A stretch of DNA of 64,000 nucleotides from Candidatus Limnocylindria bacterium (GTDB lineage Bacteria > Chloroflexota > Limnocylindria > P2-11E). Of the stretch, positions 1 through 31,052 are shown piece by piece. The stretch covers positions 7,983 to 71,982 of the forward strand of contig JBBRQB010000002.1 of assembly GCA_038227105.1 (NCBI GenBank), in the 5' to 3' direction. The notes beneath the pieces were generated by a model, which was not told the DNA's origin, did no database searches, and was given only the letters and a program-made list of their open reading frames with translations. Position numbers and translations under genes: made by a program. Position 1 is the stretch's first letter. Each line of letters starts with the position of its first letter.

Positions 1-967
1 CCTTCGCCGCTGCCGAGAGGCGTGAGCCCTGGATGACCACCATGCCGATCGCGCCGTAATCGAAGCGGCCCTCGAAGCCGATCCGGCCGAGCGTCGCGAA
101 CCCCACGGCGACGCCGATGCCGAGCCCGAGGTCGTGGCCGCGCTTGCGCCAGCCGGCCTCGAGCTCCGCGAAGCGCTCCTGCATGGCGACCGCCATTCGC
201 GTCGCCTGGAGCTGCGGCTCCGGGATCTCGACCGGGTCGTTGAAGAACACCATGATCCCGTCGCCGGCGAAGTGCTCGACAGTGCCCTCGTGACGGAAGA
301 TGACCTCACCCATGGCCGCCTGGTACGCGCGGAGCACCCCGAGCGCCTCCTCCGGCTCCGCGGTCTCGGAGAAGGCCGTGAACCCGCGCAGGTCCGCGAA
401 CACGACCGTGATCTCGCGGCGGTGGCCGTCCAGCAGTGCGTCGCCGCCGGTGGACATGACGAGCTCTGCGATCTGCGGCGACAGGAAACGGCGTAGCCGG
501 CCGAGGCGGCCGAGCTCGTCCACCTGCTCCTGCACACGTTGCTCGAGCGTGCGGTTCCACTCCGCGAGCTCGACCTTCTGGCGCTCGCTCTCGTCGTGGT
601 ACGTCTTCACCCGGAGCAGTGACTTCACGCGCGCGAGGAGCTCGGGTTGGTCGAAGGGCTTCGCGATGAAGTCGTCGGCGCCGGCTTCGATGGCTTTCAC
701 CTTCTCCGGGAGACCGCTCGCCGTGACCATCACGACCGGCAGGAAGCTGGTCAGCGGATCAGCACGCAGCCGGCGGCACACCTCGTAGCCGTCGATGCCG
801 GGAAGCATGATGTCGAGCAGCACGAGGTCCGGCTTCTCGGTCAGCGTCTTGAGCAGCGCCTCCTCACCGGTCAGCGCGGTCACGACCTGGTAGCCGTTCG
901 GGACGAGCACGGCCTCGAGCAGCCGCAGGTTCTGCGGGATGTCGTCGACGGCGAGGATCTTGGTCAC
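1..967 (-). CDS. Response-regulator receiver fused to class III adenylate/guanylate cyclase (5' part; 3' end beyond window start)
   Basis: Own minus-strand translation from GTG at 967: VTKILAVDDIPQNLRLLEAVL...LVLLDIMLPGIDGYEVCRRL (REC) then ...REITVVFADLRGFTAFSE...FAGDGIMVFFNDP (class III cyclase motifs). No stop before position 1. GTG overlaps the TGA of the upstream CheY gene (GTGA). Absent from ORF track because truncated. Confidence 0.75.
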   Translation of the reverse strand, partial: MTKILAVDDIPQNLRLLEAVLVPNGYQVVTALTGEEALLKTLTEKPDLVLLDIMLPGIDGYEVCRRLRADPLTSFLPVVMVTASGLPEKVKAIEAGADDFIAKPFDQPELLARVKSLLRVKTYHDESERQKVELAEWNRTLEQRVQEQVDELGRLGRLRRFLSPQIAELVMSTGGDALLDGHRREITVVFADLRGFTAFSETAEPEEALGVLRAYQAAMGEVIFRHEGTVEHFAGDGIMVFFNDPVEIPEPQLQATRMAVAMQERFAELEAGWRKRGHDLGLGIGVAVGFATLGRIGFEGRFDYGAIGMVVIQGSRLSAAAK

Positions 968-1341
968 GGCTTTGGGTCGATGTAGCTGCGGACCTGGTCA
1001 GGAAAGCTCTTCACGTCGATCGGCTTCGCGATGAATCCATCGAAGCCGGCCTTGTCGAACCGCTCACGATCGCCGGTCATCACGGATGCCGTGAGCGCCA
1101 CGGTAGGGATGTGTTTCGTCCTCTCGTCCGCGCGGATGCGCTGCATGGCCATGATCCCGTCGATCCCGGGCAGCTGGATGTCCATCAGGATGAGTGCGGG
1201 CAGATGCTCGGCGCTCATCGTTACGGCGGTCTCACCGTCGATCGCCTCGACCGTGCGGAAGCCGTGGAATCGCAGCACGTCGCGAGCGAGCTTCATGTTC
1301 TTCTCGTTGTCCTCGACGATGAGGATCAGCTCATTGGCCAT
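964..1341 (-). CDS. Single-domain CheY-like response regulator (receiver only)
   Basis: ORF track 125 aa: ILIVEDNEKNMKLARDVL...LILMDIQLPGIDG...KPIDVKSF is a typical REC fold. The ATG is adjacent to the stop of the upstream HK (1342). Confidence 0.85.
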   Translation of the reverse strand: MANELILIVEDNEKNMKLARDVLRFHGFRTVEAIDGETAVTMSAEHLPALILMDIQLPGIDGIMAMQRIRADERTKHIPTVALTASVMTGDRERFDKAGFDGFIAKPIDVKSFPDQVRSYIDPKP

Positions 1342-4300
1342 TTAGGCTCCCTTCACCACGGGCAGCGTGACGGTGAACGTACTGCCTTTGCCCGAGGTGC
1401 TCTCGACCGTGATGGTGCCACCATGCAGCTCGACCATCCGCTTGGAGAGGGCCAGCCCGAGGCCGGTGCCCTCACGAGACTTTTCGGTCTGGTGTCCGGC
1501 CTGTGTGAACTCCTCGAAGATCCGCTCTTGGTCCTCGACGGCGATGCCGATCCCGGTGTCGTGGACGGCGAGCTGGATGTGGCCGTTCTGCTGGTCGGCG
1601 CGCAGCCGAACCGTGCCCCCGTCCGGCGTGAACTTCACGGCGTTCGCCAAGAGGTTCACCACGACCTGCTTCACCTTGCGCTCGTCGGCGACGACCTCAT
1701 CGAGCGCCGGCGCCATGTCGAGCTCGAGCTTGATCCCGTGACTCTGCGCCCGCTCTCGCACGAGGGTGACCGCGTTGTTCAACGCGGCCACGAGCGAGAA
1801 CGGCGCGAGCTCCAGCTCCATGCGACCGGCCTCGATCTTGGAGAGGTCGAGGATGTCGTTGATGAGCGTCAGCAGGTGTTTGCCGGATGAACGGATGTCC
1901 TCGAGGTAATCGGCCTGCTGATCGTTCAGCTCGCCGAACATCCGCTGCAACAGCACATCGGAGAAGCCGATGACCGCGTTCAGCGGCGTGCGGAGCTCGT
2001 GTGACATGTTGGCGAGGAACTCGCTCTTGTGCTGGTTCGCCACCTCGAGCTGCGCCGATTTCTCCTGGATCTCGTTGAACAGGCGGACGTTCTCGATGGC
2101 GATGGCCGCCTGACGAGCGAAGGATTCCACGAGGTCGATCTCGCGGTCGGTGAACGGTCGCACCTCGATGCGGACCAACACCAGGACGCCGAGCACGTCG
2201 TCACCGCGCAAGAGCGGCACGCCGATGCCGGTACGCGCACCGATCGCGACCATGCCGCGCGAATCCGCGACAGTCTCATCGGCGGTGACGTCGTGGATGT
2301 GGATCGTCCGTCGCTCGCGGAACGCCCGCCCCAGGACCGACGCGGCGTAGGTGATTTCCGCGACCGGGCCCCCCGATGTGGTGGCGTCCTCCGGTCGCCT
2401 CGACGCGACCAATTTGCCATTGCCGTCACGATCGGTCTGCCGGATCCAGCCGTACTCGGCCCGGCAGAGCGCGAGCGACTTGTCGAGCACCATCTCGAAC
2501 ACCGGCTTCAGGTCGAACGCGCTCTGGCTCATTGCCGCGAGGAGCTCCGCGGTCGCGGTCTGGCGCTCGAGCGCCTCCTGCGTCTCCCTGAAGAGTCTGA
2601 CGTTCTCCATGGCGATCGCGGCCTGTGTCGCGAAGGACTCAACGAGCTCGATGTCGCGCGTGGAGAAGGGATCTACCTCGCGCCGGCCGAGCTGGATCAC
2701 GCCGATGGGCTCACCGTCCTTCAGGATCGGTATCGCCAGCCGTGTACGGACGAGTCCCGCTTGCGCGCCCGACCGCAGCTGCTCGTCGAGTAGGACATCG
2801 GGTATGTGCACGGCCCTCCGGGTCACGACCGCTCGTTCCAGGGTGCTGGTCGCGACCGCCGGATCGAGCGTGCGTCGCACGAGGTGTGTCGCCGCATCGC
2901 GTGGCCAGTCTCCGGATGACGCGTCATAGAACCATTCGCCGCCGTCGCGCTGCCAGATGACCGCATGGTCGGCGCGGCATAGTGCGAGCGATGATTCGGC
3001 GATCGTCTGTAGCACCGGCCCGATATCGAACGCCGACCGGCTGATGACATCCAGCACGCTGCTCGTCGCGGTCTGGCGCTCAAGCGCCTCCTGCGTCTCC
3101 TTGAACAGCCGCGTGTTCGCGAGCGCGATGACCGCTTGATCCGCGAAGGTCTGCACGAGCTCGATCTGCCGCTCAGAGAACCCGCGGGGCTCGCGGCGGC
3201 GCAGGACGATCGCGCCCAGCGCCCGGCCGTCGCGCATCAACGGCGCGCTCAGGATGGCCCGCTGGCCATCCCCTCGGAGCGATATCGCCTTGCTGAGCGG
3301 ATATTCGTCGGTCGCGCGAACGTCCGCTATATGGATCGTGCGGCGCTCGACGATGGCGCGACCCGTGACGGTCAGCGAATCGATCGGCGTGCTGGTGGCC
3401 ATGTCGATCGGACCAGCATGGGCGGACGCGACTGCCTGGTCCCCTTGGACGATCATCACGGTGACGTCCTCAGCGCCTGCGAACCGCGCCGCGCTCACCG
3501 CGATCGCATCAAGGACCGGCTGGATATCGGTGGGTGATGCCGAAATGACCTTGAGAATGTCGCCGATGGCCATCTGACGCTCGAGTGCCTCACCGGTCTC
3601 GTTGAACAGCCGGGCGTTCTCGATCGCGATCACCGCCTGGTCAGCGAAGGTCTCCACGAGGGCGATCTGCTCGGCGGAGAAGGAATTCGCGCTCGTTCGC
3701 CAGAGGGCGATGACGCCGATCGATCGGCCTCCCGTGATCAACGGCACCGAAAGCAGGACCTTGAAGCCGCCGAGCCGTTTGGCGTCGGCGTAGGTGTACG
3801 TCGGGTCGGCGTCGACATCGGGGATGTGGACCGTGCGTCGCTCGGTGAACGCGCGACCCGTCGCTGAACCGAGGTTGTCGGACCTGATCGGGTTCTCGCG
3901 CTGCCATTCGCGCATGACATCCGCCCGGGGACCGAACGCCGCACTCATCGCGAGGAGCTCGCCATCAGCCCGGTAGAGGAAGCCGTTCTCCGCCTCGCTG
4001 AGGCGGGTCGCATGCGAGATGACGGTGCTCAGGAGGCCCTCGAGATCGAGGGCGGAACCGCTGATCGCCTTGAGGATCTCGCTTGTCGCGGTCTGACGTT
4101 GCAGCGACTCCTTCGTTTCGTTGAAGAGCCGGACGTTATCGAGCGCGATGACCGCTTGTGACGCGAATGTCTCGACCAGCTCCACCTCCTGCTCGCTGAA
4201 TGCACCCGGCCTGATGCGCCGCAGCTGGATCGCGCCAACGGCGCGCCCATCCTTGAGGAGTGGCGCAGCGAGGAAGCCGCGATACCCATGCTCGGCCGCG

Positions 4301-6780
4301 TACGCCTTCGCCTCGCCGAATTCGGCGTCGTCGAGGTCCTCCATGTCAGGCACGTTGTACAGGCGTCCTTCGCGGATGACGCGTCCGGTCACGAATCGAT
4401 CTGACAGCGGGAACACCTGCTTGGGTACGGCGAGCTTGCCATTGGTCGCAACGAGATCCACGTCGCCGTCCGCGCGAAGGAGGGCGACCGCGGCATCATC
4501 CGCGTTGCAGAAACGCCCGGCGCTCGCCGCGATCGTGTCGAGGACCGGTTGCACGTCGGTTGGTGAGCTCGAGATCACCTGCAGGATGTCGCTGATCGCC
4601 GTCTGTCGCTCGAGCGCCCCCTTCGTCTCGTTGAAGAGGCGCACATTTTCCAGGGCGATGACGGCCTGGTCGGCGAACGCGCGAAGCAGGTCCGCGTCTC
4701 GCTCACTGAATGCACCCGCGGTCGATCGCCGCAGCGCGATGCCGCCGATCGCGGTGCCTCCACGCAACAAGGGCGTGGCGATCGTGGCGCGGAAGCCAAA
4801 GCGACGCGACGTCTCTCGTAGCGCGGGGAATTCCGGGTCATCGAGGGTGTTCGCTGAGTGGATCGTCCGGCGCTCGAGAACGGCACGGCCCATCACGCTT
4901 GCCTGATCGGCCGGCCATAGCTCGTCCGGTCCCCGCAGCGGGATCGGCCCGTGATGCGCGCGCGTGCTGAACTGACCGTCGGCGTAGAGCGCGAGGAGCG
5001 CGTCCTCGCAGCCGCAGAACCGGACCGCATTGCGCACGATCGCGTCGAGTACCGGTTGCTGCTCGGTCGGCGAGCTCGCGATGACCTGCAGGATCTCGCC
5101 GAGCGCCGTCTGGCGCTCCAGCGACTCCCTTGTTTCGTTGAAGAGCCGCACGTTCTCGATGGCGATGACCGCCTGATCGGCGAAGGTCTCCAGTAGCGCG
5201 ATCTCCTTTTGCGAGAATGGGCGTGCGACCTCCCGGCGCGCCACGATGACCCCTATCAGCTGACCGTCGCGCGCGAGCGGCACCCCGAGGAGGGTGCTGT
5301 GCGGCGGCGCCTGTCCGGTCGCCCGCCGCTGGCCGCTGTATTCACCGTCCGCCGCCGTATCCGGGATCTGCACGCTTCGTCGTTCGAGAAGCACCCGGCC
5401 GGTCAGTGTCGCGCGCGTTGGCGCGATCGGATGCTCCTGCCAGTACGCGATGAAGTCCTCCCGGTCGGGGATCGCGCCGGCGTCCGCCAATAGGTGCGCA
5501 GCGCCGCCGTCGATGCCGAGGACGTAGGCGCTGTCGGCGCCGCAGAGCTGAACAGCGTTGTGCACGACCGCGTCGAGGACCGGAGCAACGTCCTGCACCG
5601 AGCCGCTGATCACCTTCAACAGGTCGCTCGTCGCCGTCTGCCGCTCGAGCGCTTCCTTCGTCTCGTTGAACAGGCGGACGTTCTCCATCGCGATGACGGC
5701 CTGGTCAGCGAAGGTCTCGACGAGCTTCACTTCGCTCTCACTGAACGGCTGCACCCGGTTGCGGCGTAGCAGGAAGGCGCCGATCACCACGTCGTCGCGG
5801 CGCAGCGGTACGACGAGCAGCGTGCGGGTCTCGGCCATCTCCTTCGGGATCCTGCCCAATGCGATATCCGTGGCGGACGTGGCCGCGTAGTACTCGTGCA
5901 GGCGGGTATCGGCGATATGGACGGAGCGCTTCGTCTTCAGCATCTGACCCATCCCGCTTTTCGGCGAGATCGGCGTCAAGGCGGGATCGAGCTGCTCCAC
6001 GGTCGAGCTCGCGACATTGCTGCGCATGCGACCGTCGATGCGGCTCACGGTCGCGTTGTCGGCTCCACAGATCCGCGCCGCACGCCCGGCGAGCATGCGG
6101 AGGATCGCGTCCAGATCGAACGCGGACCGGCTGATCGCCCGAAGCACATCCGCGGTCGCGGACTGCTGGTCGAGCGCCTCCCTCGTTTCTTTGAGGAGCC
6201 GCGCGTTCGCCATCGCGACCGCGAGCTGATCGGCGAACGTCTCGACGAGCGCGATCGTCCCCGGTTCGAAGCCACCCGGATCGTTGCGCGAGGTCAGGAT
6301 CACCCCGATCGTCTCGCCCCCGTGACGGACCGGCACGGCGAGCCGCGTCCGACGCCGTTCGGCGTCATGTAGCTTCGGCTCGGCGAGGATCGTGTCCGCG
6401 TAGTGGAACCGTTGACCGCTGAGGGCGGCGCGACCAAAGATCGTGCCGGGATCCGCTGTCACGCGGTCGCCGGGCTTCCCCGGAGCCTGCCCGTACGTCG
6501 CGGCAAGGACGTAGCCGTCCACGTCGCGCCGGATGAATCCGCCGTTGTCGGAGCCCGCGAGGCGGACCACAGCTCTCACGACCATATCCGCGACCGTGTC
6601 GATCTCCACCGTGGGATCGGCGAGGGCCCGCATCACGGCGCTCACGGCGTCCAGCTGCTTTCGCGCGTCGTCGCGCACCGCCGCCGCCGGCTTTGTCGAC
6701 GCCGTCAGCTTCTTGAGGGGCGCGGCCTTCTGTGCGGCGACCTTCGTGACCGCTCGCTTCCTGCCCGTCCCCGACCTCAC
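1342..6780 (-). CDS. Cytoplasmic multi-GAF sensor histidine kinase (~9 tandem GAF domains + HisKA + HATPase_c)
   Basis: ORF track 1812 aa. The linker motif [23 protein letters not shown] recurs 8 times between ~165-aa GAF units. C-terminus has [17 protein letters not shown] (H-box) and [18 protein letters not shown] (G2 box). No TM segments. GTG start at 6780 is 1 bp from the divergent neighbour's ATG, so the true start may be the GTG at 6678. Confidence 0.85.
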
Positions 6781-6781
6781 G

Positions 6782-8965
6782 ATGTGCGCAAGTATCGGCG
6801 CGCCGCAATACCCTTGCGCCGCGGGAGGGTGCTTGGATATCTGGCAGATCCTGCGCGACCGGCTCGACTACGCGTCGTTCGTCCCGACCCCGCTTCCCGA
6901 CGTGGAACGCGCCGATCTCCGGCGTCGCGACGGCTCGCCCTATTCGGTGCTGAAGAACCAGCGTGGGGACAAGGGCGCGGGCCGGTATCTGCGGCTCGAT
7001 GTGGCCGATGTCCAGCTCTACGAGCTGATGGATGGACAGCGTTCGATCCAGGACATCCTCATGGCGCACGTCGAGCGCAACGGCGTCTTCGCGCTGGATC
7101 GCCTGGCGCGCCTCACGGCGCAGCTCAGGGCGAACGGCTTCTTCGGCGAGGAGCCGCCGATGCTGTACGAGAAGCTGTTCGCGCGGCGCGCGATGCGCGA
7201 TCCCATCGCGCGCGCGTCGACCTTCCTCAAGCGGCTCGTCGTGTGGGACATCGCCCGGTGGTCGAACGCCGACCGCCTCGTGGACGCGGTGTACCGGCTC
7301 GGTGGCCGGCTCGCGTTCACGCGCGTCGGTGCCGTCGCGCTCGTAGCCTTCGGTCTGTACGGGCTCTGGACCTGGTTCGGTGAGGTGCGCTCACCGCGCC
7401 ATCAGCTCGCGACGATCGACGGCTCCTACGTACTGGGCATCCTCGCGCTCGTCCTCCTGCAGGTGGCGTCGATCTCGGTGCATGAGGCCGGTCACGCCCT
7501 CGCGATCCGGCACTTCGGGAGGCGCGTCCGACGCTTCGGCGTCGCGATGTATTACCTCTTCCCGTGCTTTTACGTCGACTCGACGGACATGGTCCTCGGC
7601 ACACGCGCGCAGCGGATCGTCGTGTCCCTCGCCGGGCCGTTCGCGGGCCTGACCGTCGCGTCCGCTTGCGCGCTCGTGGCGGCGGGGCAACCCGACACGC
7701 TCACCGGAAGCCTCATGTTCAAGGCCGCGAGCCTGTTCGTCTTCCAGTTCATCTTCAATCTCCTGCCGATCCTGGAGCTCGACGGCTACCACGTGCTCAC
7801 CGACGCGCTCGACGCGCCGTTCCTGCGCCAGCGGGCGCTCGGGTTCGTGCGCGGCGCGGCATTCGTGAAGCTGCGTCGTCGCGCCACATGGTCACGTGAG
7901 GAGGTCGGCCTCGCGATCTTCGGCATCACCGCGATCGTCACGTCCCTCGCGACGCTGGTGCTGTCGATCCAGCTCTGGCGTTCACGCATCGGTGTCGCAT
8001 CTCAAGAGCTCCTCGCCATCGGACCGGCGGGGATCCTCGCGCTCGCGCTGCTGGTCCTCGTCTTCGTCGGCCCGCTCGCGGTCGCGGTCATCGCGCGGGT
8101 GACCGGCACCGTGCGCACGACCGTCAACCTCGCACGCTCCCGCAGCCGCGCTGTGACCCAGCGCGAGCAGCAGGAGCGCGTCGCGATGCTCGCTCGCGTG
8201 CGATTCCTCGCGGGACTGCCAGGCCCGGCGCTCGTTGCGCTCGCGTCGCAGCTGGACATCGAGCACGCCGATGCCGGACGGACCGTGATCACCGCGGGCA
8301 GCACCGGCGACCGCTTCTACCTCGTGCGATCGGGCTCGCTGCAGGCCGTGGCCGTCGACGGCACGGTGCTCGGGACGATCTCGGCCGGAGAGGGCTTCGG
8401 CGAGCTCGCGCTGCTCGACGGAACGCCGCGGACCGCGACGGTCCAGGCCCTCGAGGACTGCGAGCTGTGGTCGCTCGACCGGCCGCACTTCCAGCGGTGG
8501 ATCCGTGACCGGTACGAGATCGCCGCGCGCATCCGCGCCGACATCGGCGCTCGGACCGCCCTCGCGGCCCTGCCGTTCTTCCGCGATCTGGAGGGCCGCG
8601 AGCTCGACGCCACTGCCGCGCGCCTGCAGGCCCGGCGGTACGAAGACGGTGACGTCGTGATCCAGGCGGGAGAAAGTGGCGGCGGCTATTACCTGATCCG
8701 CGAGGGCACGGCCGACGTGGCCCTCCCGGACGGCCGGCACGTGCGCACCCTCGGCCCCGGCGACGGCTTCGGGGAGCTCGCGCTCATCTTCGGGACGCCG
8801 CGCACGGCGACGGTCACGGCGAAGGGCCCACTGGTCGTCGGAGTGCTCGGACGGTCTGATTTCGCGGCGCTTGTAACTGCGTCAGGCGAAACGATGGGTG
8901 AATTCCGCCGCAGGACGGGCCATTATGTCGGGGCTGGCCTTGGCGGGGCCGTTGGGGGAGCGTAG
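6782..8965 (+). CDS. M50/site-2-type intramembrane metalloprotease with N-terminal PqqD/RRE-like domain and two C-terminal cyclic-nucleotide-binding domains
   Basis: ORF track frame 6533..8965. [13 protein letters not shown] (HExxH) in a hydrophobic segment plus [12 protein letters not shown] (M50 NxxPxxxxDG motif). N-terminal [53 protein letters not shown] resembles PqqD/RRE. Two cNMP-binding units ([10 protein letters not shown]...[21 protein letters not shown] and [10 protein letters not shown]...[21 protein letters not shown]). Start uncertain: ATG 6782, TTG 6833 (after GGGAGGG) or ATG 7028. Confidence 0.8.
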
Positions 8966-9181
8966 GTGGACTGTTGGACCTGTGAGCGCCCGGCACTCGC
9001 GGCATGCCGGTTCTGTGGCCGCGGCGCCTGCCGGGAGCACGCGCGGAGCCATCCCTTCGTCCTCGACGTCTTGCGTGGCACCCGGCATCAGGGGCTGCGG
9101 GCCCTCGTCGTGGAGGACGCCGTCCATTGCGGCGTCTGCCGGCCCCGGAGCGAGCCGGTCGACATGCCCGAGCTGGAATAG
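8966..9181 (+). CDS. Small Cys-rich zinc-ribbon protein (DUF2180-like pattern)
   Basis: ORF track 71 aa: MDCWTCERPALAACRFCGRGACREHA...VHCGVCRP (CxxC x10 CxxC x4 C ... CxxC). GTG start immediately after the protease TAG (8963-8965), consistent with translational coupling. Confidence 0.55.
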   Translation: MDCWTCERPALAACRFCGRGACREHARSHPFVLDVLRGTRHQGLRALVVEDAVHCGVCRPRSEPVDMPELE

Positions 9182-9303
9182 GGGAGGCGCAGTGGGGAAC
9201 GTCATCCAGAGCACGTAGCGGGCGTGCCGGCGTGTATCGAGCGGCAGGTCCGCTCGGCGCAGGCTCCCTTCAACACACACGCGGAGAAAAAGGAGCAACG
9301 GCG

Positions 9304-10278
9304 ATGGCTAGCAAGAACCTTGGCGCGGTGATCCAGCGGGCGATCAGCGACGGGGCGTTCCGTCGCCAGCTTCAGGCCGACCCGGCCGCGGCGCTCCGCG
9401 GCTTCAACCTGACACCCGACGAGATCGCGGCGGTCCGGAGCGGCGACTCGAGCCGGCTCATGTCGCTCGGTGTCGACTCGCGGATGAGCAAAGCATTCAC
9501 CGTCGGCGGCGCGGCACTCGAGAACCCGTCGCGCGCCGCGCTGAGCGACGTCTCGGGCAACACCTCGAGCGCGCTCACGGGCGACAACACCTCGGGTGCT
9601 CGCGAGGGCCTCGCCAGCGACCAGACCACCGGTGCGCGCGCCGCATCGAGCGACGGTCAGAACTCCGGCGCTCCGGCCTCAGGAGCTCGCGCCACGATCA
9701 GCGACGGCCAGACCAGCGGCTCGGTGCACGAGGGTGCGCGGGCCAGCGTCTCGGCCCCACAGGGCGACGCGTACCGCGCCGTCAACGACCCGGACAGCAG
9801 CGGTGGCTCGCGCGCCGCGATCGGCGACCCGACGGCCGCCGGCACGCACTCGAGCATCACCGCCCCACAGGGCGACGCGTATCGCGCCGTCAACGACCCG
9901 GACAGCACCGCTGGCTCGCGCGCCGCGATCGCCGACCCGACGGCCGCCGGCACGCACTCGAGCATCACCGCCCCGCAGGGCGACGCGTACCGCGCGGTCA
10001 ACGACCCGGACAACACCAGCGGGACGCGCGAGTCGGTCTCGGCACCGCAGGGCGACGCGTACCGCCCGATCCACGACCCAGACAACGACTCGGTCGCAAG
10101 CCGGATGCAGGACACGAACACCGCCCTGCCGGGCAGCGACGTGCAGCACGACCCCGGCTTCGTCGACAGCCACAGCGCGTTCGTTCCAAGCGACTCGGCC
10201 GACGCGCAGCGCGAGCTGCTCGACGCCCAGCACCACGGCGACGCCCTTGGCGACACCGGCCACGGCATCAACTCCTAG
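9304..10278 (+). CDS. Repeat protein with N-terminal nitrile-hydratase/Nif11-like leader-type domain and 36-aa tandem repeats
   Basis: ATG 9304 preceded by AAGGAG (9290-9295). The longer ORF-track start at 9004 gives Arg-rich junk and is rejected. N-terminus MASKNLGAVIQRAISDGAFRRQLQADPAAALRGFNLTPDEIAAV matches the NHLP/Nif11 leader helix pattern. Then a Ser/Gly/Ala/Asp-rich region and repeats APQGDAYRAVNDPDSxGSRAAIxDPTAAGTHSSIT. Confidence 0.7.
   Translation: MASKNLGAVIQRAISDGAFRRQLQADPAAALRGFNLTPDEIAAVRSGDSSRLMSLGVDSRMSKAFTVGGAALENPSRAALSDVSGNTSSALTGDNTSGAREGLASDQTTGARAASSDGQNSGAPASGARATISDGQTSGSVHEGARASVSAPQGDAYRAVNDPDSSGGSRAAIGDPTAAGTHSSITAPQGDAYRAVNDPDSTAGSRAAIADPTAAGTHSSITAPQGDAYRAVNDPDNTSGTRESVSAPQGDAYRPIHDPDNDSVASRMQDTNTALPGSDVQHDPGFVDSHSAFVPSDSADAQRELLDAQHHGDALGDTGHGINS
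9754..10089 (+). repeat. Tandem in-frame 108-bp (36-aa) repeats, 2 full + 2 partial copies, inside the 9304..10278 CDS
   Basis: DNA unit gccccacagggcgacgcgtaccgcgccgtcaacgacccggacagc... recurs at 9754, 9862, 9970 and 10042 (the last two truncated). Confidence 0.85.
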
Positions 10279-10341: not shown

Positions 10342-11013
10342 CTAGTAGCGGATGTCGCCCTGCAGGACGGCGCGGTCCTTCAGGGCGAGGTTGCGGCGGC
10401 CGATCTTGATCGCGCCGCGCTTCTCGAGGTCGGCGAGGACGCGGTTCACCGACACGCGGGTCGCTCCGACGAAGCCGGCGAGATCCTCCTGGGTCATGTC
10501 GATCTGATCCGTGCCCGAGGCTTCCGCGAGATCCAGCAGGCACTTCGCGACCCTCCCCGGGAGGTCCAGGAACACGAGGTCTTCCACGTGGCCGGTGCTC
10601 CGGCGGACGGTCTTCACCAGGAGCGCCAGCATCCGGCGCATCGCGTCAGGGTTCCGCTCGAGCGTCCCGATGAATTCCTGCCGCGCGAGTGCCAGCGTGT
10701 GGGTCTCGGTGATCGCCGTCACCGTGGCGGATCGCGGGCCGTCGTCGAACAGCGCGAGCTCGCCGAAGACGTCACCGCCGCGCTCGAGCGCGACCACGAC
10801 CTCGCGGCCCTGCTCGTCCGGCACGCTGACCTTCACGGTGCCCGAGGTGATCAGGAAGACCTGCCCGGCCGGGTCGTCGTTGTGGAAGATGACCTCGTCC
10901 CGTGCGAAGTGCCGCGGGCGCATCTTGCCGGCCAAGGCCAGCCGGTCCGCTGGGCTGAGACAGGCGAAGAGCGGGCTTTCACCCAGGTAGTCGGCGACCG
11001 CAGCGGTATCCAC
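10342..11013 (-). CDS. CRP/FNR family transcriptional regulator (cNMP-binding + HTH)
   Basis: ORF track 223 aa: FHNDDPAGQVFLITSGTVKV...GDVFGELALFDDGPRSATVTAITE (cNMP-binding) and C-terminal EDLAGFVGATRVSVNRVLADLEKRG (HTH). GTG start. Confidence 0.9.
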   Translation of the reverse strand: MDTAAVADYLGESPLFACLSPADRLALAGKMRPRHFARDEVIFHNDDPAGQVFLITSGTVKVSVPDEQGREVVVALERGGDVFGELALFDDGPRSATVTAITETHTLALARQEFIGTLERNPDAMRRMLALLVKTVRRSTGHVEDLVFLDLPGRVAKCLLDLAEASGTDQIDMTQEDLAGFVGATRVSVNRVLADLEKRGAIKIGRRNLALKDRAVLQGDIRY

Positions 11014-11343: not shown

Positions 11344-12282
11344 TCACCGCTGGCCAGCGAGCTCCAGGAACCGCGGCTTCACCTCGGTCATCGTCCGTTC
11401 GATCGTCTCGCGGTCGTAGGGCGGGGACATCCCGAACAGGAAGCCTTTCACGCCGATCCGGTGGTACTCGACGAGCTTCTTCGCGATCTCGTCCGGTGAC
11501 CCCAGGACCGCCGGCCGGTTCGGCGCCTCGACCTTGTTCCGCGTCGCGACCTCGCGCATGCGCTTGTCGACGTCGTTGAGGTCGTCGCGGACAAGGATGC
11601 CGCCGCCGCCGGTCGGGGCGATCTCGTTGTAGTCGCGGCCCACGTCCGCGCAGTGCTTCTTCAGCACCTCGAGTTTGTGCTTGATCACATCGGGTGTGCC
11701 GAAGCCGTGCCACCAGTCGGCGTAGCGCGCGGTGATCTTCAGCGTTACCTGCTCGCCGCCACCGCCGATGAGGATCGGCAGGCGCTTCTGGACCGGGCGG
11801 GTACCCAGCGTCGCGTCCTCGAGCTGGTAGTACTTGCCGTGGTACGTCATCGTGCCCTCGTCGAGCAGGACGCGGTTGATGCGTGTCGCCTCACGTAGCT
11901 TCGCGAGCCGGATCGCGGGCGTGTCGAAGTCGATCCCATACATCTTGTGCTCGTGCTCGTTCCAGGCCGCGCCGATGCCGAGCACCGCGCGGCCGTGGCT
12001 GATGTTGTCGAGGGTCGATGCCATGTTCGCGAGCACGGCGGGGTAGCGATACGTGTTTCCACTGACGAGCATCCCGATGAGCGGCTTCGTGGTGATCGCC
12101 GCGAGTGCGGGCAGGATCTGCCAGCCCTCGAGGTTCGGCCCCGTGATGTCGCCCATCAGCGGCACGAAGTGGTCCCAGGTCATGAGGACGTCCCACCCGG
12201 CCTGCTCGGCGAGGAGCGCGGCGTCGCGCATCTCGTCCCAGGTCGTGTACTGCGGATGGAGCTGAAGACCGAAGAACGTCAT
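11344..12282 (-). CDS. LLM-class F420-dependent oxidoreductase (luciferase-like monooxygenase family)
   Basis: ORF track 312 aa: MTFFGLQLHPQYTTWDE...DVLMTWDHFVPL...ILIGGGGE are typical LLM motifs. Confidence 0.85.
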   Translation of the reverse strand: MTFFGLQLHPQYTTWDEMRDAALLAEQAGWDVLMTWDHFVPLMGDITGPNLEGWQILPALAAITTKPLIGMLVSGNTYRYPAVLANMASTLDNISHGRAVLGIGAAWNEHEHKMYGIDFDTPAIRLAKLREATRINRVLLDEGTMTYHGKYYQLEDATLGTRPVQKRLPILIGGGGEQVTLKITARYADWWHGFGTPDVIKHKLEVLKKHCADVGRDYNEIAPTGGGGILVRDDLNDVDKRMREVATRNKVEAPNRPAVLGSPDEIAKKLVEYHRIGVKGFLFGMSPPYDRETIERTMTEVKPRFLELAGQR

Positions 12283-12302
12283 GAGCTGCCTCCGAGCGTA
12301 TA

Positions 12303-13658
12303 GTGCGGACTCCGATGGCGCTCACGAAGGATCGCACCGACGTCGCCCAGGTCCTCGCCGACACGAAAAAGCACGTCCTCGTCAACTGGTCGGCGCAGGG
12401 AAATAGTTCGCCGCTCGTCATCACCGGGGCCGAGGGCGTGTGGCTCCACTCGGGTGACCGCCGGATCCTCGATTTCAGCTCCGAGCTGGTGAACTCCAAC
12501 CTCGGGCACGGCCATCCACGTGTGGTCCGCGCGATCCAGGAGCAGGCGGCGATCCTCAACTACGTCACGCCGGCGTTCACGACCGAGGCGCAAGCGACCC
12601 TCGCGCGCATGCTCGCGGACGTGACGCCCGGCGACCTGACCCGGACGATCTTCACGACGGGCGGCACCGAGGCCAACGAGAACGCCATCAAGCTCGCTCG
12701 CCTCGCGACCGGCCGGCACAAGATCCTCACCCAGTGGCGCAGCTTCCATGGCCAGACGCAGGGCGCGATGACGCTCGGCGGCGACAACCGTCGTTGGGCC
12801 AATGAGCCCGGCATCACCGGCGTGGTCCATTTCCTGAATCCCGATCCCTACCGCTCGCTCTTCGGCGACGACGCGCAGAAGGCGCTCGCGCACGTCGAGG
12901 AGGTCATCTGGTACGAGGGTCCGCAGTACATCGCGGCGATCCTGGTGGAGCCGATCGTCGGCACATCTGGCCTGCTCGTGCCGCCGGATGGATTCCTTCA
13001 GGGCCTGCGGACCCTATGCGACAAGCACGGCATCCTCCTCGTGTTCGACGAGGTCATGACCGGGTTCGGCCGGACCGGGAAGTGGTTCGCCGCGGAGCAC
13101 TGGAACGTGGCGCCGGACATCATGACCTTCGCGAAGGGCGTGACCTCGGGCTACGTCCCGCTCGGCGGCGCGATCGTGAACGAGCGCGTCGCGAAGCACT
13201 TCGACCAGAACGTCTACTGGGGCGGGTTGACCTACAGCGGTCACGCCCTCGCGTGCGCCGCCGGCATCGCGACGCTTGAGACGTACGAGAGCGAGGGATT
13301 GATCGGGAACTCCGACAAGATGGGCGACCTCCTCGGCCGCGAGCTCAAGGCGCTCGCCCAGAAGCATCCGTCGATCGGCGACGTCCGCGGGCGCGGACTC
13401 TTCTGGGGTATCGAGCTCGTGAAGGACCGCGGCACCAAGGAGATGCTCGAGCAGTGGAACGGTCCCTCGAGCGCGCTCGCGAACGCGCTCAAGGCCGCGC
13501 TGTTCAAGCGCGACGTGTATGTCTTCTGCCGCTGGAACATGCTGTTCGTCGCGCCTCCGCTCATCGTGACCGAAGACGAGCTGCGCATCGGCATCCGCGC
13601 CATCGATGAAGCGCTCGAGATCGCCGACCGCTACGCCAGCACGGGGAAGCTCGAATAG
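12303..13658 (+). CDS. Class III (omega-) aminotransferase, PLP-dependent
   Basis: ORF track 451 aa: SELVNSNLGHGHPRVVRAIQEQ...LVFDEVMTGFGRTGKWFA...TFAKGVTSGYVPLG (class III signature; the GFGRTG region). Confidence 0.85.
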   Translation: MRTPMALTKDRTDVAQVLADTKKHVLVNWSAQGNSSPLVITGAEGVWLHSGDRRILDFSSELVNSNLGHGHPRVVRAIQEQAAILNYVTPAFTTEAQATLARMLADVTPGDLTRTIFTTGGTEANENAIKLARLATGRHKILTQWRSFHGQTQGAMTLGGDNRRWANEPGITGVVHFLNPDPYRSLFGDDAQKALAHVEEVIWYEGPQYIAAILVEPIVGTSGLLVPPDGFLQGLRTLCDKHGILLVFDEVMTGFGRTGKWFAAEHWNVAPDIMTFAKGVTSGYVPLGGAIVNERVAKHFDQNVYWGGLTYSGHALACAAGIATLETYESEGLIGNSDKMGDLLGRELKALAQKHPSIGDVRGRGLFWGIELVKDRGTKEMLEQWNGPSSALANALKAALFKRDVYVFCRWNMLFVAPPLIVTEDELRIGIRAIDEALEIADRYASTGKLE

Positions 13659-13744
13659 CCGCCAGCGCCTCGCGGGTCCACTGGGGCATCAACCTGCCGG
13701 CACAGCACACCACCTGGCCCGAGCTCCGGGACACCGCGCTCCTC

Positions 13745-14611
13745 GTGGACCGCCTCGGCTTCGACTCGCTCTTCACCTGGGACCACTTCGTGCCGCTCGA
13801 CGGCGATCCGAAGGGACCGATGTTCGAGGCCTGGGAGCTGCTGGCAGCGTGGGCGGCGGTGACGAAGACGGTGCGCCTGGGGACGCTCGTCACCGGAAAC
13901 ACGTACCGGCACCCGCCCGTGCTCGCGAAAATGGCGGCGACGTTGGATCACGTGTCCGAGGGCCGCGCGATCCTCGGCCTCGGCGCCGCATGGCACGAGG
14001 CCGAGCACGCGATGTACGGCATCCCGTTCCCGAGCACGGGTGGCCGCCTCGCGCGGATGGACGAGGCTGCGCGCGTGCTCCGAATGCTGCTCGATGACCG
14101 CTCCTCCTCCTTTGAGGGCAAGCACTACCGGTTGAAGGACGCGGTCGCCGAGCCGAAGCCGGTGCAGAAGCGCCTGCCGATCCTCATCGGCGGTGGCGGC
14201 GAGCAGAAGACCCTACGGACCGTCGCGCGCTATGCCGACTACTGGCACGGCCACGGTGACCCCGCGGTGATCCGGCACAAGCTCGACGTGCTCGCGGCGC
14301 ACTGCGCCGAGATCGGGCGCGACGTCGCGGAGATCACGCCGCTCACGACGGTCCGGCCGGACCTGATCCTGCGTGACCGGAGGGCCGACGTCGAGGCGCA
14401 GCTCGAGCGCGTCCGGGTCCGCTCCCGCGCCACGGAGCCGCTCGCGATGAATGAGATCCACACGGTCGACGCGCTCGTGGAACGCTGCGCCGCGCTTTGG
14501 GCCGCAGGAGCACGCGGCTTCATCCTGTACGTCAAGGCGCCGTTCGACCACGAGACGATCGAGCGCATCGCGAACGAGGCCCGGCCGCGGCTCGAGGAGG
14601 TGATCGCATGA
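13745..14611 (+). CDS. LLM-class F420-dependent oxidoreductase (second paralog); N-terminus probably extends upstream
   Basis: ORF track 288 aa from GTG 13745. In-frame upstream translation (~13673..13744) RVHWGINLPAQHTTWPELRDTALLVDRL aligns with the N-terminus of the first LLM (MTFFGLQLHPQYTTWDEMRDAALLAEQ) but holds no ATG/GTG/TTG. Confidence 0.8.
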   Translation: MDRLGFDSLFTWDHFVPLDGDPKGPMFEAWELLAAWAAVTKTVRLGTLVTGNTYRHPPVLAKMAATLDHVSEGRAILGLGAAWHEAEHAMYGIPFPSTGGRLARMDEAARVLRMLLDDRSSSFEGKHYRLKDAVAEPKPVQKRLPILIGGGGEQKTLRTVARYADYWHGHGDPAVIRHKLDVLAAHCAEIGRDVAEITPLTTVRPDLILRDRRADVEAQLERVRVRSRATEPLAMNEIHTVDALVERCAALWAAGARGFILYVKAPFDHETIERIANEARPRLEEVIA

Positions 14612-15825
14612 CGACCGCCGTTCGCGCGACCACGCTCATCGACGGAACGGGCGCGGACCCGTCGCGCGGACGGTTCATCGTCATCGAGGATGGCGTGATC
14701 ACCAGGGTCGCCTCGGACGCGCCGAAGGGCGCCGAGATCATCGACACGGGTGATCTGACGATCCTTCCCGGGCTCATCGACTGCCACGTCCATCTCGCCG
14801 TAAGCCAGTGGAACCTGGAGCAGCGCCTATCGACCCCGAACAGTCTGAACGTCGCCATGGCTCTGGTGAACTCGCGCACGACCCTCGAGGCAGGCTTCAC
14901 GACGGTTCGCGACGCGGGCTTCACGACGCGCGGTGTGAAGATGGCCGTCGACCGCGGGATCTTTCCGGGGCCCCGCATGCGCATCGCGGTCGCGCCTCTC
15001 TCGCAGACGGGCGGTCATGGTGACTCGGTGATGCCATCCGGGGTGAACACCTGGCCCGCTGATCCCGAGAGGCCCTACGGCGTCGTCGACGGCGTGGACA
15101 GCGCGCGGCGCGTGACCCGCGAAATGCTGCGCGCCGGCGCGGACCAGATCAAGGTCATGACCTCAGGTGGGGTCATGTCCCCGAACGACGAGCCGACGGC
15201 GACCGGGTTCTCGCCCGAGGAGATCGCGGCCATCGTGTACGAGGCGCACGCCGCGGGCAAGACGGTGATGTCGCATGCGCAAGCGACCCAGGGCATCAAG
15301 AACGCCGTGTTCGCGGGCATCGAGTCGATCGAGCACGGCATCTACCTCGACGAGGAGGCGTGCGCGGAAATGAAGAGACGCGGCACGTACCTCGTGGCCA
15401 CGCTCATCGCGCCCATGTGGGTGCTTCGCCGCGCGGAGAAGGATCCGTCAGCGGTGCCGCCGTATGCGGTGCGAAAGTCCAAGGAGGTCATCGATGCCCA
15501 TCGGCAGTCGTTCCGGATGGCCGTCGAGTCCGGCGTCAAGATCGCTATGGGCACCGACACTGGTGTGGGGCCGCACGGCACGAACGCCGAGGAGCTCGCG
15601 GTCATGGTCGAGAACGGGATGACCCCGATGCAGGCGATCGTGGCCACGACGAAGACCGCCGCGGAGTGTGCGCGCGTCGACACGCTCGTCGGCACCATCG
15701 CGGCCGGCAAGCGCGCCGACATCATCGGCGTACGCGGCGATCCGCTCGCGAACATCGGCCTGTTCAAGGACCCGGCGTCCGTCGCGTTCGTGATGAAGGA
15801 CGGCGCTATTCACAAGCGGCCGTGA
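14608..15825 (+). CDS. Metal-dependent amidohydrolase family protein
   Basis: ATG 14608 overlaps the LLM stop (ATGA) and follows GAGGAGG. MTTAVRATTLIDGTGADPSRGRFIVIEDGVITRV...LPGLIDCHVHL...AHAAGKTVMSHA...ESIEHG (amidohydrolase HxH/His/Asp motifs). Confidence 0.8.
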   Translation: MTTAVRATTLIDGTGADPSRGRFIVIEDGVITRVASDAPKGAEIIDTGDLTILPGLIDCHVHLAVSQWNLEQRLSTPNSLNVAMALVNSRTTLEAGFTTVRDAGFTTRGVKMAVDRGIFPGPRMRIAVAPLSQTGGHGDSVMPSGVNTWPADPERPYGVVDGVDSARRVTREMLRAGADQIKVMTSGGVMSPNDEPTATGFSPEEIAAIVYEAHAAGKTVMSHAQATQGIKNAVFAGIESIEHGIYLDEEACAEMKRRGTYLVATLIAPMWVLRRAEKDPSAVPPYAVRKSKEVIDAHRQSFRMAVESGVKIAMGTDTGVGPHGTNAEELAVMVENGMTPMQAIVATTKTAAECARVDTLVGTIAAGKRADIIGVRGDPLANIGLFKDPASVAFVMKDGAIHKRP

Positions 15826-16844
15826 AGAAGTGGGAGCCGCCCGCCGGCTGGAAGCGGGTCACGACGCTCGAGACGCACGCGGCGGGCGAGCCGCTGCGCA
15901 TCGTCACCGGTGGCCTCGATCCGATCCCGGGAAAGACGATCCTCGAGAAGCGCCGCTACGCGCGCGAGCATCTCGACGGGCTGCGCCGGTCGATCGTGTT
16001 CGAGCCGCGCGGCCATGCAGACATGTACGGCGCGATCCTCACCGAGCCCGTCACGCCCGACGGCGATCTTGGTGTGCTGTTCATGCACAACGAGGGCTGG
16101 AGCACGATGTGCGGTCACGGCATCATCGCGCTCACCACGGCGCTCCTGGAGACGGGTGAGCGCGCGGGCGATGTCATCCGCTACGACGCACCGCCCGGCC
16201 GCGTGACCGCGACGGCCGTCCGAGACGGCGACCGGGTCCGTGAGGTCGCGTTCGAGAATGTGCCCTCGTTCGCCGCCGCGCTGGATGAGACAGTGCGGGT
16301 GGAGGGCATCGGTGAGGTCCGGTACGACCTCGCCTTCGGTGGCGCCTTCTACGCCTTCGTCGACGCCGACGCGCTCGGCGTGCCGCTCGACGCGAGCGGC
16401 TTCCGCCACTGCATCGAGGTGGGGATGCGGATCAAGCGTGCGGTGATGGCGAACCGCGAGGTGCGGCACCCCGAGGCACCTGACTCCGCCGACCTCTCCT
16501 TCCTCTACGGGACGATCCTCACCGGCCGGGCGCACGAGCCGGGCGCCGACTCACGGAACGTGTGCGTGTTCGCCGAGGGCGAGGTGGACCGCTCGCCGAC
16601 GGGCACCGGCGTGAGCGCCCGCGTCGCCATCGAGCACGCCCGCGGAAGGCTGCGCGACGGTGCGACGTTCACCGTGGAGAGCATCATCGGGACCCGCTTC
16701 CGCGGTCGCGTGCTGCGGGAGGCGAAGGTCGGGCCACACGCCGCGGTCGTCTCGGAGGTCGCGGGCTCGGCGTGGGTCGTCGGGCGCTCGGAGCTCTGGA
16801 TCGCGCCGAACGATCCGCTTCGCGAAGGGTTCGTCCTTCGCTAG
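15822..16844 (+). CDS. Proline-racemase-family enzyme with Cys/Thr catalytic pair (trans-3-hydroxy-L-proline dehydratase type)
   Basis: GTG 15822 overlaps the amidohydrolase TGA. GHADMYGAIL, MHNEGWSTMCGHG (first catalytic Cys) and DRSPTGTGVSAR (Thr where racemases/epimerases have the second Cys). Confidence 0.75.
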   Translation: MKKWEPPAGWKRVTTLETHAAGEPLRIVTGGLDPIPGKTILEKRRYAREHLDGLRRSIVFEPRGHADMYGAILTEPVTPDGDLGVLFMHNEGWSTMCGHGIIALTTALLETGERAGDVIRYDAPPGRVTATAVRDGDRVREVAFENVPSFAAALDETVRVEGIGEVRYDLAFGGAFYAFVDADALGVPLDASGFRHCIEVGMRIKRAVMANREVRHPEAPDSADLSFLYGTILTGRAHEPGADSRNVCVFAEGEVDRSPTGTGVSARVAIEHARGRLRDGATFTVESIIGTRFRGRVLREAKVGPHAAVVSEVAGSAWVVGRSELWIAPNDPLREGFVLR

Positions 16845-20725: not shown

Positions 20726-20731
20726 ATACCA

Positions 20732-20763
20732 GGAGACCCCGACCATCGTCAGCCGGGGTCTCC
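20732..20763. terminator. Hairpin between convergent genes
   Basis: GGAGACCCC-gaccatcgtcagcc-GGGGTCTCC, directly after the amidase TAG (20723-20725) and before the zinc-ribbon gene stop (20790). Weak T-tract. Confidence 0.5.
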
Positions 20764-20789
20764 TCGTCGTTCGTGGGGGTCGGACGGCT

Positions 20790-21134: not shown

Positions 21135-21231
21135 AGTGAAGCTTCCTCCCTTTCTGTGCTGGCTCTCGAGCCTCGCTCGGTCTCGGGAGGACTGCCTCAC
21201 TCGACGCTCGCGTTGGGGACTCTTGCAGCCG

Positions 21232-21798: not shown

Positions 21799-21800
21799 CT

Positions 21801-22415: not shown

Positions 22416-22424
22416 GCGGCGAGT

Positions 22425-24517: not shown

Positions 24518-24541
24518 CCTTCGAATGCTAGTGTCCGCGCG

Positions 24542-31034: not shown

Positions 31035-31052
31035 GCCGCGAAGTATGGACGG

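Follow-up and report, generated by a model that had tools for sequence, protein, structure and literature searches.

Does a sensor kinase whose gene is followed directly by a free-standing receiver gene, and then by a gene for a second receiver fused to a class III nucleotide cyclase, feed one receiver or two, and which cyclic nucleotide does such a system make? The question is raised by three minus-strand genes at one end of a 64,000-nt stretch of the genome of Candidatus Limnocylindria bacterium (Chloroflexota; assembly GCA_038227105.1, contig JBBRQB010000002.1, positions 7,983 to 71,982), referred to here as the window. They encode a histidine kinase with nine GAF domains, a small receiver (REC1), and a protein in which a receiver (REC2) precedes a class III cyclase domain. 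The layout itself is no surprise, as class III cyclases under two-component control have been on record since cyanobacterial CyaC; the locus is a disassembled CyaC counterpart whose receivers are of the DivK/PleD type and whose active site is non-canonical. Our analysis indicates that it is probably a translationally coupled three-gene two-component operon with a cyclic mononucleotide as its output. A branched pathway, in which one kinase serves two receivers, is plausible, judging from synteny, receiver fusions, and homology to DivK and PleD. To this extent the branched receiver output proposed in an earlier note on this DNA holds, while the exact role of the small receiver still lies among phosphate sink, feedback element, and relay.

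Organization of the three genes

The TAA stop codon of the kinase gene abuts the ATG of the REC1 gene with zero spacing (the junction reads ggagcc-taa-atg-gcc), and a Shine-Dalgarno-like sequence, AAGGGAG, lies immediately upstream of this ATG. The TGA of the REC1 gene and the GTG of the receiver-cyclase gene overlap as GTGA. Read in the minus-strand sequence, these junctions are those that the earlier note had described, with the kinase stop beside the start of the small receiver gene and the receiver stop overlapping the cyclase GTG; the start/stop overlaps recur in a related locus (L001, 84% identity). The GTG start matches that of a database protein (P0001, 370 amino acids, N-terminus MTKILAVDD, from a 106-kb NCBI contig), which is 100% identical to the visible part of the cyclase protein; 48 residues are missing from the window. 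The part cut off is the 3' end of the gene, past window position 1, and not a part that an upstream contig would supply, as had been supposed, and catalysis can be judged without it. Because the three genes are contiguous and overlapping, translational coupling is plausible, and to this extent the co-translation of all three stated in the earlier note is supported. The GTG of the cyclase gene has no Shine-Dalgarno-like sequence before it. A scan of the window detected no tRNA and no Rfam family.

The kinase and its two receivers

Pfam assigns nine GAF domains, a HisKA domain (residues 1585-1652), and a HATPase_c domain (residues 1699-1808) to the kinase. The GAF units share 25-50% pairwise identity, and a common connector motif closes every unit except the last, which joins the kinase core. 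The H-box histidine and the N, G1, and G2 boxes are intact (putative phospho-His H1594, codon 2001..1999; G2-type box GTGLGLA) and, together with the Pfam domains, mark the protein as a HisKA-type sensor histidine kinase. The core best matched the hybrid and cell-cycle kinase cores HrmK, TorS, DivJ, and BarA in NCBIfam, and HK853-type kinases and DivL in the Protein Data Bank (PDB). No convincing transmembrane segment was found in the 1812-amino acid protein, and on this basis the kinase is predicted to be soluble and cytoplasmic. The NKFDE motif of GAF domains that bind cyclic nucleoside monophosphates (cNMPs; phosphodiesterase or CyaB1 type) is absent from all nine units (no NK...F...DE pattern), and feedback of a cNMP through the kinase GAF domains is thus unsupported. 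Conservation with the orthologues in L001 and a further locus, L003, begins at about residues 36-42, which makes the start codon ambiguous; the kinase may therefore start at the alternative GTG 6678 (about 1778 amino acids), leaving about 150 bp of divergent intergenic DNA. The kinase gene and the neighboring M50 protease gene overlap by ~250 bases if each is taken as its longest open reading frame (ORF; starts at 6780 on the minus strand and at 6533 on the plus strand, respectively).

REC1 is a Pfam Response_reg domain (E 2.5e-22) with a complete phosphorylation set (E10, D11, D54, T84, K106; Asp54 codon 1182..1180). Its best PDB match was Caulobacter DivK (1m5t; E 1.6e-27, 42% identity over 121 ungapped residues), with PleD next and CheY proteins far below both (E about 4e-14). 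In NCBIfam, the best matches were the receiver domains of the hybrid kinases BarA, TorS, HrmK, and ArcB; CheY matches were weak, and the DivK-type model scored 44 bits against a cut-off of 160. REC1 is accordingly described here as DivK-like by similarity and is not filed as DivK. With DivK as its best solved relative, and with che and flagellar genes missing from both the operon and its conserved surroundings, the CheY that the earlier note saw in this gene is not one of the chemotaxis kind.

REC2 has PleD as its best PDB match (E 3e-43; 49% identity to PleD D1). It scored 162 bits against the PleD family NF007135 (cut-off 474), over residues 1-138 and hence domain 1 only; the cyclase protein contains neither a GGDEF domain nor an adaptor receiver and falls outside the PleD family. 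The REC2 phosphorylation set (D8, D9, D52, T82, K103; Asp52 codon 814..812) is invariant in 54 homologues. In comparisons of the window with L001 and L003, the ratio of nonsynonymous to synonymous substitution rates (dN/dS) of the receivers was 0.12-0.15 (0.12-0.13 for REC1).

Conservation of the cassette and fusion of its receivers

In a scan of one genome per species, a related cyclase domain was found at 43 loci, and at 38 of them the architecture is that of a receiver-cyclase. The upstream flank exceeds 1.3 kb at 33 loci; synteny was counted over these, and in every one (33/33) a kinase core and a REC1 orthologue lie upstream of the receiver-cyclase gene on the same strand. The cassette occurs in Chloroflexota/Limnocylindria, Actinomycetota, Thermoleophilia, Binatia, Burkholderiales (including cultured Variovorax), and Alphaproteobacteria. 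The conserved unit consists of the kinase core, the small receiver, and the receiver-cyclase, and the sensor half of the kinase varies: orthologues carry from about 1 to more than 9 GAF units, and the Burkholderiales kinase is of a transmembrane-HAMP type with one or two GAF units. The DivK/PleD pair is re-used here with a mononucleotide cyclase in a cassette that spans at least five phyla-level groups, with the sensor swapped.

In 16 of the 120 best protein clusters, from four sources, REC1, REC2, and the cyclase domain are fused in a single protein of about 500-524 amino acids. The N-terminal receiver of these fusions shares 50-65% identity with REC1 and 33-43% with REC2, keeps the conserved D, T, and K motifs, and is joined to the second receiver by distinct, low-complexity linkers of 25-35 residues. 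One fusion was seen in DNA (on a 136-kb contig), 11 bases after a HAMP-HisKA-HATPase-receiver hybrid kinase. Gene-calling artefacts were rejected as an explanation, given 16 clusters, four sources, distinct linkers, and one instance in DNA. Because none of the 33 genome loci carries the fused form, the split form is the usual one and fusion a minority state. The 33/33 synteny and the fusions strongly support the proposition that REC1 acts in the same pathway as the receiver-cyclase. The phosphate sink or connector proposed in the earlier note gains this much, a role in the same pathway, but by sequence either role is inseparable from DivK-like feedback or relay. The cassette is a clean natural system for asking whether a single-domain receiver beside a receiver-enzyme works as a sink, in allosteric feedback, or by pairing.

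In the Burkholderiales cassette, a gene of periplasmic ABC-substrate-binding-like type (judged by eye) is often inserted before or after REC1 (L024, ~8960..9969; L021, ~9000..9988; L025, ~8980..9978). Four loci from Alphaproteobacteria and Actinomycetota (L036, L037, L038, L039) encode the same cyclase subfamily with no receiver or kinase core detected adjacent, and in L038 (7925..10729) the cyclase domain is attached straight to an array of GAF units of the same kind, short-circuiting the signal path.

Active site and substrate of the cyclase domain

The class III cyclase motifs named in the earlier note were located at residues 190-197 (FADLRGFT) and 235-242 (GDGIMVFF), in agreement with Pfam, in which Guanylate_cyc (PF00211) scored 37.3 bits on the truncated protein (cut-off 21.9; E 2.8e-9). 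The closest solved catalytic domains were CyaB (3r5g, E 4e-35), Cya2 (2w01, E 8e-30), and CyaC (1wc1, E 6e-20), followed at a distance by Ma1120 (E about 6e-8) and, marginally, Rv1264 (E 4.8e-4); the nearest two, CyaB and Cya2, are class IIIb-like. Alignment to CyaB/Rv1264-type enzymes, from which the earlier note had hoped to read the substrate, thus found CyaB nearest but Rv1264 distant, and the specificity residues assigned no substrate.

All six canonical catalytic positions lie within the window, and their equivalences were taken from gap-free local alignments to 3r5g, 2w01, and 1wc1 (Table 1). Both metal-binding aspartates (D192 and D236) and the transition-state arginine (R316) are present. 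Of the transition-state Asn-Arg pair only the arginine is kept, with Ile312 at the asparagine position (VVIQGSR, versus EVNLASR in CyaB). The two base-selecting positions hold His232 and Gly305, a pair that matches neither the adenylate combinations (Lys with Asp in class IIIa, Lys with Thr or Ser in class IIIb) nor the guanylate combination (Glu with Cys, Ser, Thr, or Gly), although the glycine at the second position is that of Cya2. Because His, Gly, and Ile stand at these positions, the substrate is not assignable by textbook rules, and the "adenylate" of the original description was not upheld by the base-selecting residues. We give cAMP about an even chance of being the product, cGMP or both nucleotides a clearly smaller one, and another product or no activity a smaller one still.

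In 54 homologues with 65-90% identity, D192, D236, and R316 are invariant and His232 and Gly305 at least 90% conserved. Across the 120 nearest clusters, His or Arg occupies the first base-selecting position, with Gly or Ala at the second. The asparagine position is Ile in the clade around the window sequence, and also in Binatia and Limnocylindrales loci, and Asn in more distant members. A wider search of 1.84 billion representatives at 50% identity (E<=1e-30) returned 659 clusters, with lengths of 150-1322 amino acids and many N-terminal architectures. The canonical Lys was found in 0 of ~125 readable motifs among the best 150 of these 659 clusters, Arg being commonest at the first position, followed by His and Gln; the second position, in the same 150, was Ala, Gly, Thr, or Ser. 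Since Lys is replaced across the subfamily, the automatic "adenylate cyclase" labels on hundreds of clusters rest on no specificity evidence. The dN/dS of the cyclase domain, 0.17-0.19 between the window and the Ile-carrying orthologues in L001 and L003, is near the receiver values, and a ratio of about 0.18 indicates that the domain is under purifying selection. This is a large subfamily, then, with His or Arg in place of the base-selecting Lys, and in the clade of the window sequence purifying selection persists with Asn replaced too.

Predicted structure and signal transmission

In an AlphaFold2 model (54 homologues; mean predicted local distance difference test score, 87), the cyclase protein consists of a receiver (residues 1-106), a single helix (107-171), and a catalytic domain (183-365). 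The segment LRRFLSPQIAELV (residues 159-170), near the end of this helix, resembles a cyclase transducer element, and similarity to the phytochrome-Cya2 fusion 6fht starts in the helix at LRRFLSPQIAELV, ~35 residues ahead of the catalytic core. In Foldseek searches, the template modeling (TM) score of the catalytic domain was 0.84 to CyaB 3r5g and 0.83 to Cya2, at ~35% identity (Cya2, 35-36%). Full-length matches were limited to the REC-GGDEF regulators WspR, PleD, and DgcR, which share the domain order and superpose poorly as a whole (root-mean-square deviation of 14-23 Å); no solved receiver-class III cyclase structure was found by Foldseek. By analogy with these regulators and with CyaC, phosphorylation of Asp52 most likely changes the packing of helices in the dimer and hence the catalytic geometry.

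Candidate readers of the cyclic nucleotide

Divergent from the kinase gene lies a gene for an M50 (site-2-protease-type) membrane metalloprotease with two C-terminal cNMP-binding domains. The protein has about six hydrophobic segments, an HEAGH motif (7481..7495), and a second motif of the protease core (7757..7786), and both cNMP domains contain an intact phosphate-binding cassette of the Arg-Thr type (FGELAL...PRTATV). Its TTG start at 6833 is supported by homologue alignments and by a database protein (P0271, 710 amino acids, 100% identity). The M50-cNMP family gave 395 matches at E<=1e-10; among the best 120 of these, nearly all are 710-711 amino acids long, and the named members are mostly from Limnocylindria or Chloroflexota, some with the JGI label "putative peptide zinc metalloprotease." A literature search whose coverage left most subscription journals outside returned zero matches for an M50 protease with cNMP domains. 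The M50 neighbor is kept in L001 and L003.

Two genes past the M50 gene is a gene for a Crp-family regulator, with the cassette GELAL...PRSATV and an orthologue at the same relative place in L001. Genes for cNMP domains also lie beside the cassette in other lineages: a Crp-like gene directly downstream in the Burkholderiales loci L020 and L043, an ABC-transporter-cNMP fusion in a Beijerinckiaceae locus (L027), and a Crp-like gene in a Thermoleophilia locus (L029). The recurrence of such neighbors supports a cyclic mononucleotide output without showing which one. Arg-Thr/Ser cassettes occur in cAMP-binding domains as well, so the neighbors do not discriminate the product. If the M50 protease responds to the product, the cyclic nucleotide would be linked directly to intramembrane proteolysis.

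Between the M50-cNMP and Crp genes is a plus-strand gene (9304..10278), with an orthologue in L001. The N-terminal ~60 residues of its product are weakly like the Franean1_4349 ribosomal-peptide family (33 bits, Pfam cut-off 48) and share 91% identity with L003; after them comes a variable stretch rich in Ser, Gly, and Asp that contains about four APQGDAYRAVNDPD repeats. That this product is a substrate of the adjacent M50 protease is pure speculation. A chain of still bolder suppositions, which we consider improbable as a whole, would have the His/Arg-Gly/Ala cyclase subfamily make a non-cAMP messenger, gated by a DivK/PleD-like receiver pair acting as one phospho-dependent unit, with the messenger switching on the M50 protease by way of its two cNMP domains, which would then process the Franean1_4349-like repeat protein. 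If true, a complete path would begin with GAF sensing in the cytoplasm and end in regulated proteolysis and the release of a peptide.

Proposed mechanism and alternative explanations

In the mechanism that we propose, the cytoplasmic nine-GAF kinase would sense a small-molecule or metabolic signal, autophosphorylate on His1594, and hand the phosphoryl group to two cognate receivers. The signal from phosphorylated Asp52 of REC2 would travel through the ~65-residue helix, made up of receiver alpha-5, a coiled coil, and the transducer-like segment, to the homodimeric catalytic domains and change their geometry and activity. The DivK-like REC1, through Asp54, would be the second substrate of the kinase and set the gain of the system, by draining phosphate, by feedback on the kinase of the kind that DivK exerts on DivJ and PleC, or in a pair with the cyclase receiver. 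The cyclic nucleotide would be read by the M50 protease with its two cNMP domains, encoded next to the operon, and by the Crp regulator. What the data show directly is the order and overlap of the genes, the identity of the domains, the intactness of the phospho-acceptor and metal sites, the conservation, the fusions, and the neighbors; which way the phosphoryl group travels, that the effect is activating and not inhibitory, what the small receiver does, and which nucleotide is made are inferred in this scheme.

Several observations weigh against this scheme. A promoter and terminator consensus scan of window positions 1..7200 found no sigma-70 or terminator consensus that would delimit the operon. 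REC1 and the kinase core resemble parts of hybrid kinases (BarA, TorS, HrmK, ArcB), and an extra receiver follows the kinase core in the Actinomycetota loci L011, L023, and L041 and in L081, where it is fused to the kinase. Three of the six canonical catalytic residues differ (His for Lys, Gly for Asp/Thr, Ile for Asn). In the Thermoleophilia loci L029 (10894..11478) and L031 (10891..11409), both metal-binding aspartates (replaced by Arg/Gly and Arg/Thr) and the His are lost with the kinase and REC1 genes still upstream; these are genuine pseudo-cyclase domains, so that the cassette can outlast a dead catalytic domain. Not all Crp-family and cNMP-domain proteins bind cyclic nucleotides, and the same literature search found no biochemical data for any member of the cyclase subfamily and no study of it.

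Part of this evidence would also fit other ways of connecting the two receivers. The hybrid-kinase resemblance and the extra receivers, which bring some loci up to three receivers in series or parallel, are what a multi-step phosphorelay would lead one to expect, with the phosphoryl group passing from the kinase to REC1, on to a histidine phosphotransfer (Hpt) protein, and then to REC2-cyclase, REC1 being an obligatory intermediate. We consider such a relay unlikely: the three genes abut or overlap and leave no room for an Hpt gene in the operon, the conserved neighbors encode cNMP-binding proteins and not Hpt (no systematic Hpt search was made), some lineages join REC1 and REC2 in cis and keep the acceptor aspartate of each, which would be unusual for Hpt-separated partners, and the closest characterized homologues, DivK and PleD, are established as parallel substrates of one kinase. 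Much less probable again is a chemotaxis-type CheY whose target is a motor or something else at a distance and which lies beside the cyclase by chance. REC1 is a single-domain receiver of CheY size with weak CheY matches in NCBIfam and the PDB, but DivK and PleD match it far better (E 1.6e-27 versus about 4e-14), no che or flagellar genes accompany it, and the constant synteny with the cyclase and the covalent fusion in 16 clusters effectively refute this reading.

For the output domain, the alternatives concern whether it is active and on what. The altered residues, including Ile312 for the transition-state Asn, and the two Thermoleophilia loci that lack the metal-binding aspartates yet remain in the cassette could mean that the domain serves as a pseudo-cyclase, that is, as a nucleotide-binding, dimerizing, or partner-binding output module. 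The earlier note had held that loss of the metal-binding aspartates or of the specificity residues would imply as much. The specificity residues are formally absent, but both aspartates are kept, and the window cyclase is not in the decayed state of L029 and L031. The catalytic residues D192, D236, and R316 are invariant, His232 and Gly305 nearly so, selection is purifying, and cNMP-binding genes recur beside the operon. The transition-state Asn was reported to be essential in a mammalian cyclase (Yan et al. 1997, as cited in PMC4215837), but Ma1120 of Mycobacterium avium, with Ala164 at this position, is an active adenylyl cyclase that becomes less active when Asn is restored, and adenylyl cyclase activity persists, 3-5-fold reduced, in its D157G mutant (PMC4215837). 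A heterodimer partner supplying the missing Asn was rejected, as the 64-kb window contains no second cyclase gene, though some distant loci have one; in L029, for instance, another gene with a cyclase domain lies about 2 kb off on the other strand (13225..13818) and may encode a heterodimer partner. A pseudo-cyclase is thus improbable for the window protein, slightly more so than the relay. An active enzyme other than an adenylate cyclase, making cGMP, both purine cNMPs, or a pyrimidine cNMP, is the most serious of the alternatives, though still a minority one, and would be compatible with the proposed mechanism, with only the messenger differing. In its favor are the missing Lys and the second-position Gly as in the guanylate cyclase Cya2 (Glu/Gly/Tyr), the place of Cya2 among the closest solved domains, the absence of Lys from all ~125 readable relatives, which would suit a subfamily-wide alternative base recognition, and the Arg-Thr cassettes of the M50 protein. 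On the other side, the first position also lacks Glu, Ser stands where Cya2 has a Tyr that enhances its use of GTP, the closest solved domain overall is the adenylate cyclase CyaB, and Arg-Thr/Ser cassettes are shared by cAMP-binding domains.

Comparison with known systems

The nearest described system is cyanobacterial CyaC (Spirulina platensis and Anabaena PCC 7120), a class IIIb adenylate cyclase with the order REC-GAF-GAF-HK-REC-cyclase in one polypeptide, which is activated by receiver phosphorylation through its intrinsic kinase or the phytochrome kinase AphC (PMC3009899). GAF sensors, a HisKA kinase, two receivers, and a class III catalytic domain are common to both systems. Here, in contrast, they are distributed over three overlapping genes, with nine GAF domains instead of two and a distal receiver that is free and DivK-like, and the Lys/Thr and Asn of the CyaC active site are replaced by His/Gly and Ile.

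The receivers themselves point to Caulobacter DivJ/PleC-DivK-PleD, since DivK and PleD are the best solved matches of REC1 and REC2, respectively. In Caulobacter, divK and pleD form one operon, DivJ and PleC act as kinases on both of its products, and phosphorylated DivK allosterically stimulates these kinases. As in divK-pleD, the gene for a single-domain receiver immediately precedes one for a receiver-nucleotide cyclase. The present locus differs in its output, a class III mononucleotide cyclase and not a GGDEF diguanylate cyclase, in having no second, non-phosphorylatable adaptor receiver, in its host phylum, Chloroflexota, and in scores below the NCBIfam equivalog cut-offs. No DivK-like partner of a class III cyclase was found in the literature search.

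CyaB and Cya2 share with the window protein the metal-binding Asp and the Arg as well as a transducer-element-like helix before the catalytic domain. They differ at the remaining positions (Lys/Thr with Asn in CyaB, Glu/Gly/Tyr with Asn in Cya2, His/Gly/Ser with Ile here), and the N-terminal regulator of CyaB is a MASE2 domain, in place of which the window protein has a receiver. Ma1120 likewise combines a non-polar residue at the Asn position with the retained Arg, but it has the canonical Lys/Asp pair and no receiver and is only distantly related. For the transmission of phosphorylation, REC-GGDEF regulators such as Leptospira DgcR (6zxb) and WspR (3bre) are a likely model: in these proteins, as predicted here, receiver alpha-5 runs into a long helix bearing a dimeric cyclase-type domain, although that domain belongs to the GGDEF fold family and its product is cyclic di-GMP. 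In the Sinorhizobium CheA-CheY1/CheY2 phosphate sink, one kinase likewise serves two phosphorylatable receivers, one of which is a single domain without output. That system belongs to chemotaxis, however, REC1 is nearer to DivK than to any CheY, and a sink is a kinetic property that is unreadable from sequence.

Coordinates and other genes of the window

Table 1. Features of the kinase-receiver-cyclase locus and its neighbors (window coordinates)
Feature	Position	Strand	Description
Kinase ORF	6780..1342	minus	Longest ORF, 1812 amino acids; TAA stop at 1344..1342
GAF array	2056..6648	minus	Nine units of ~170 amino acids each; boundaries set by connector motif
Kinase core	1345..2055	minus	H-box SHELRTPLN; N, G1, and G2 boxes
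Small receiver gene (REC1)	964..1341	minus	125 amino acids; ATG 1341..1339, TGA 966..964
Receiver-cyclase gene	967..<1	minus	GTG 967..965; 322 codons visible, exits window at position 1
REC2, receiver of cyclase protein	614..967	minus	Pfam Response_reg residues 4-115, E 8.9e-28; PleD-domain-1-like
Continuous predicted helix	455..649	minus	Residues 107-171: receiver alpha-5, coiled-coil-type linker, transducer-element-like segment
Class III cyclase homology domain	2..433	minus	Residues 179-322 of 370; final 48 outside window
D192	394..392	minus	Metal binding, in FADLRGFT; Asp in CyaB, Asp in Cya2
His232	274..272	minus	First base-selecting position; Lys in CyaB, Glu in Cya2
D236	262..260	minus	Metal binding, in GDG; Asp in CyaB, Asp in Cya2
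Gly305	55..53	minus	Second base-selecting position; Thr in CyaB, Gly in Cya2
Ile312	34..32	minus	Transition-state position; Asn in CyaB, Asn in Cya2
R316	22..20	minus	Transition state; Arg in CyaB, Arg in Cya2
M50 (site-2-protease-type) membrane metalloprotease	6833..8965	plus	710 amino acids; Pfam Peptidase_M50 and two C-terminal cNMP_binding; divergent from kinase
Crp-family regulator	10342..11013	minus	Pfam cNMP_binding and HTH_Crp_2

Farther from the operon, positions 11344..18363 encode three luciferase-like monooxygenases (11344..12282, 13745..14611, and 17344..18363), a class III aminotransferase (12303..13658), and an amidohydrolase (14497..15825). Genes of cell-wall recycling type are scattered over 19766..34860 and include those for an Amidase_2 protein (19766..20725), a SIS-domain protein (26171..27202), and a glycoside hydrolase of family 3 (33166..34860); the longest ORF of the anhydro-MurNAc kinase AnmK (31053..32780) has an N-terminal extension of ~210 amino acids. 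A second, unrelated two-component pair is encoded on the minus strand at 22443..25603. Its kinase core (22443..23135) shares 31% identity with the histidine kinase core described above, and the longest ORF of its OmpR-type regulator (23831..25603, 590 amino acids) places ~360 residues ahead of the receiver, which suggests either an over-extended ORF or an unusual N-terminus.

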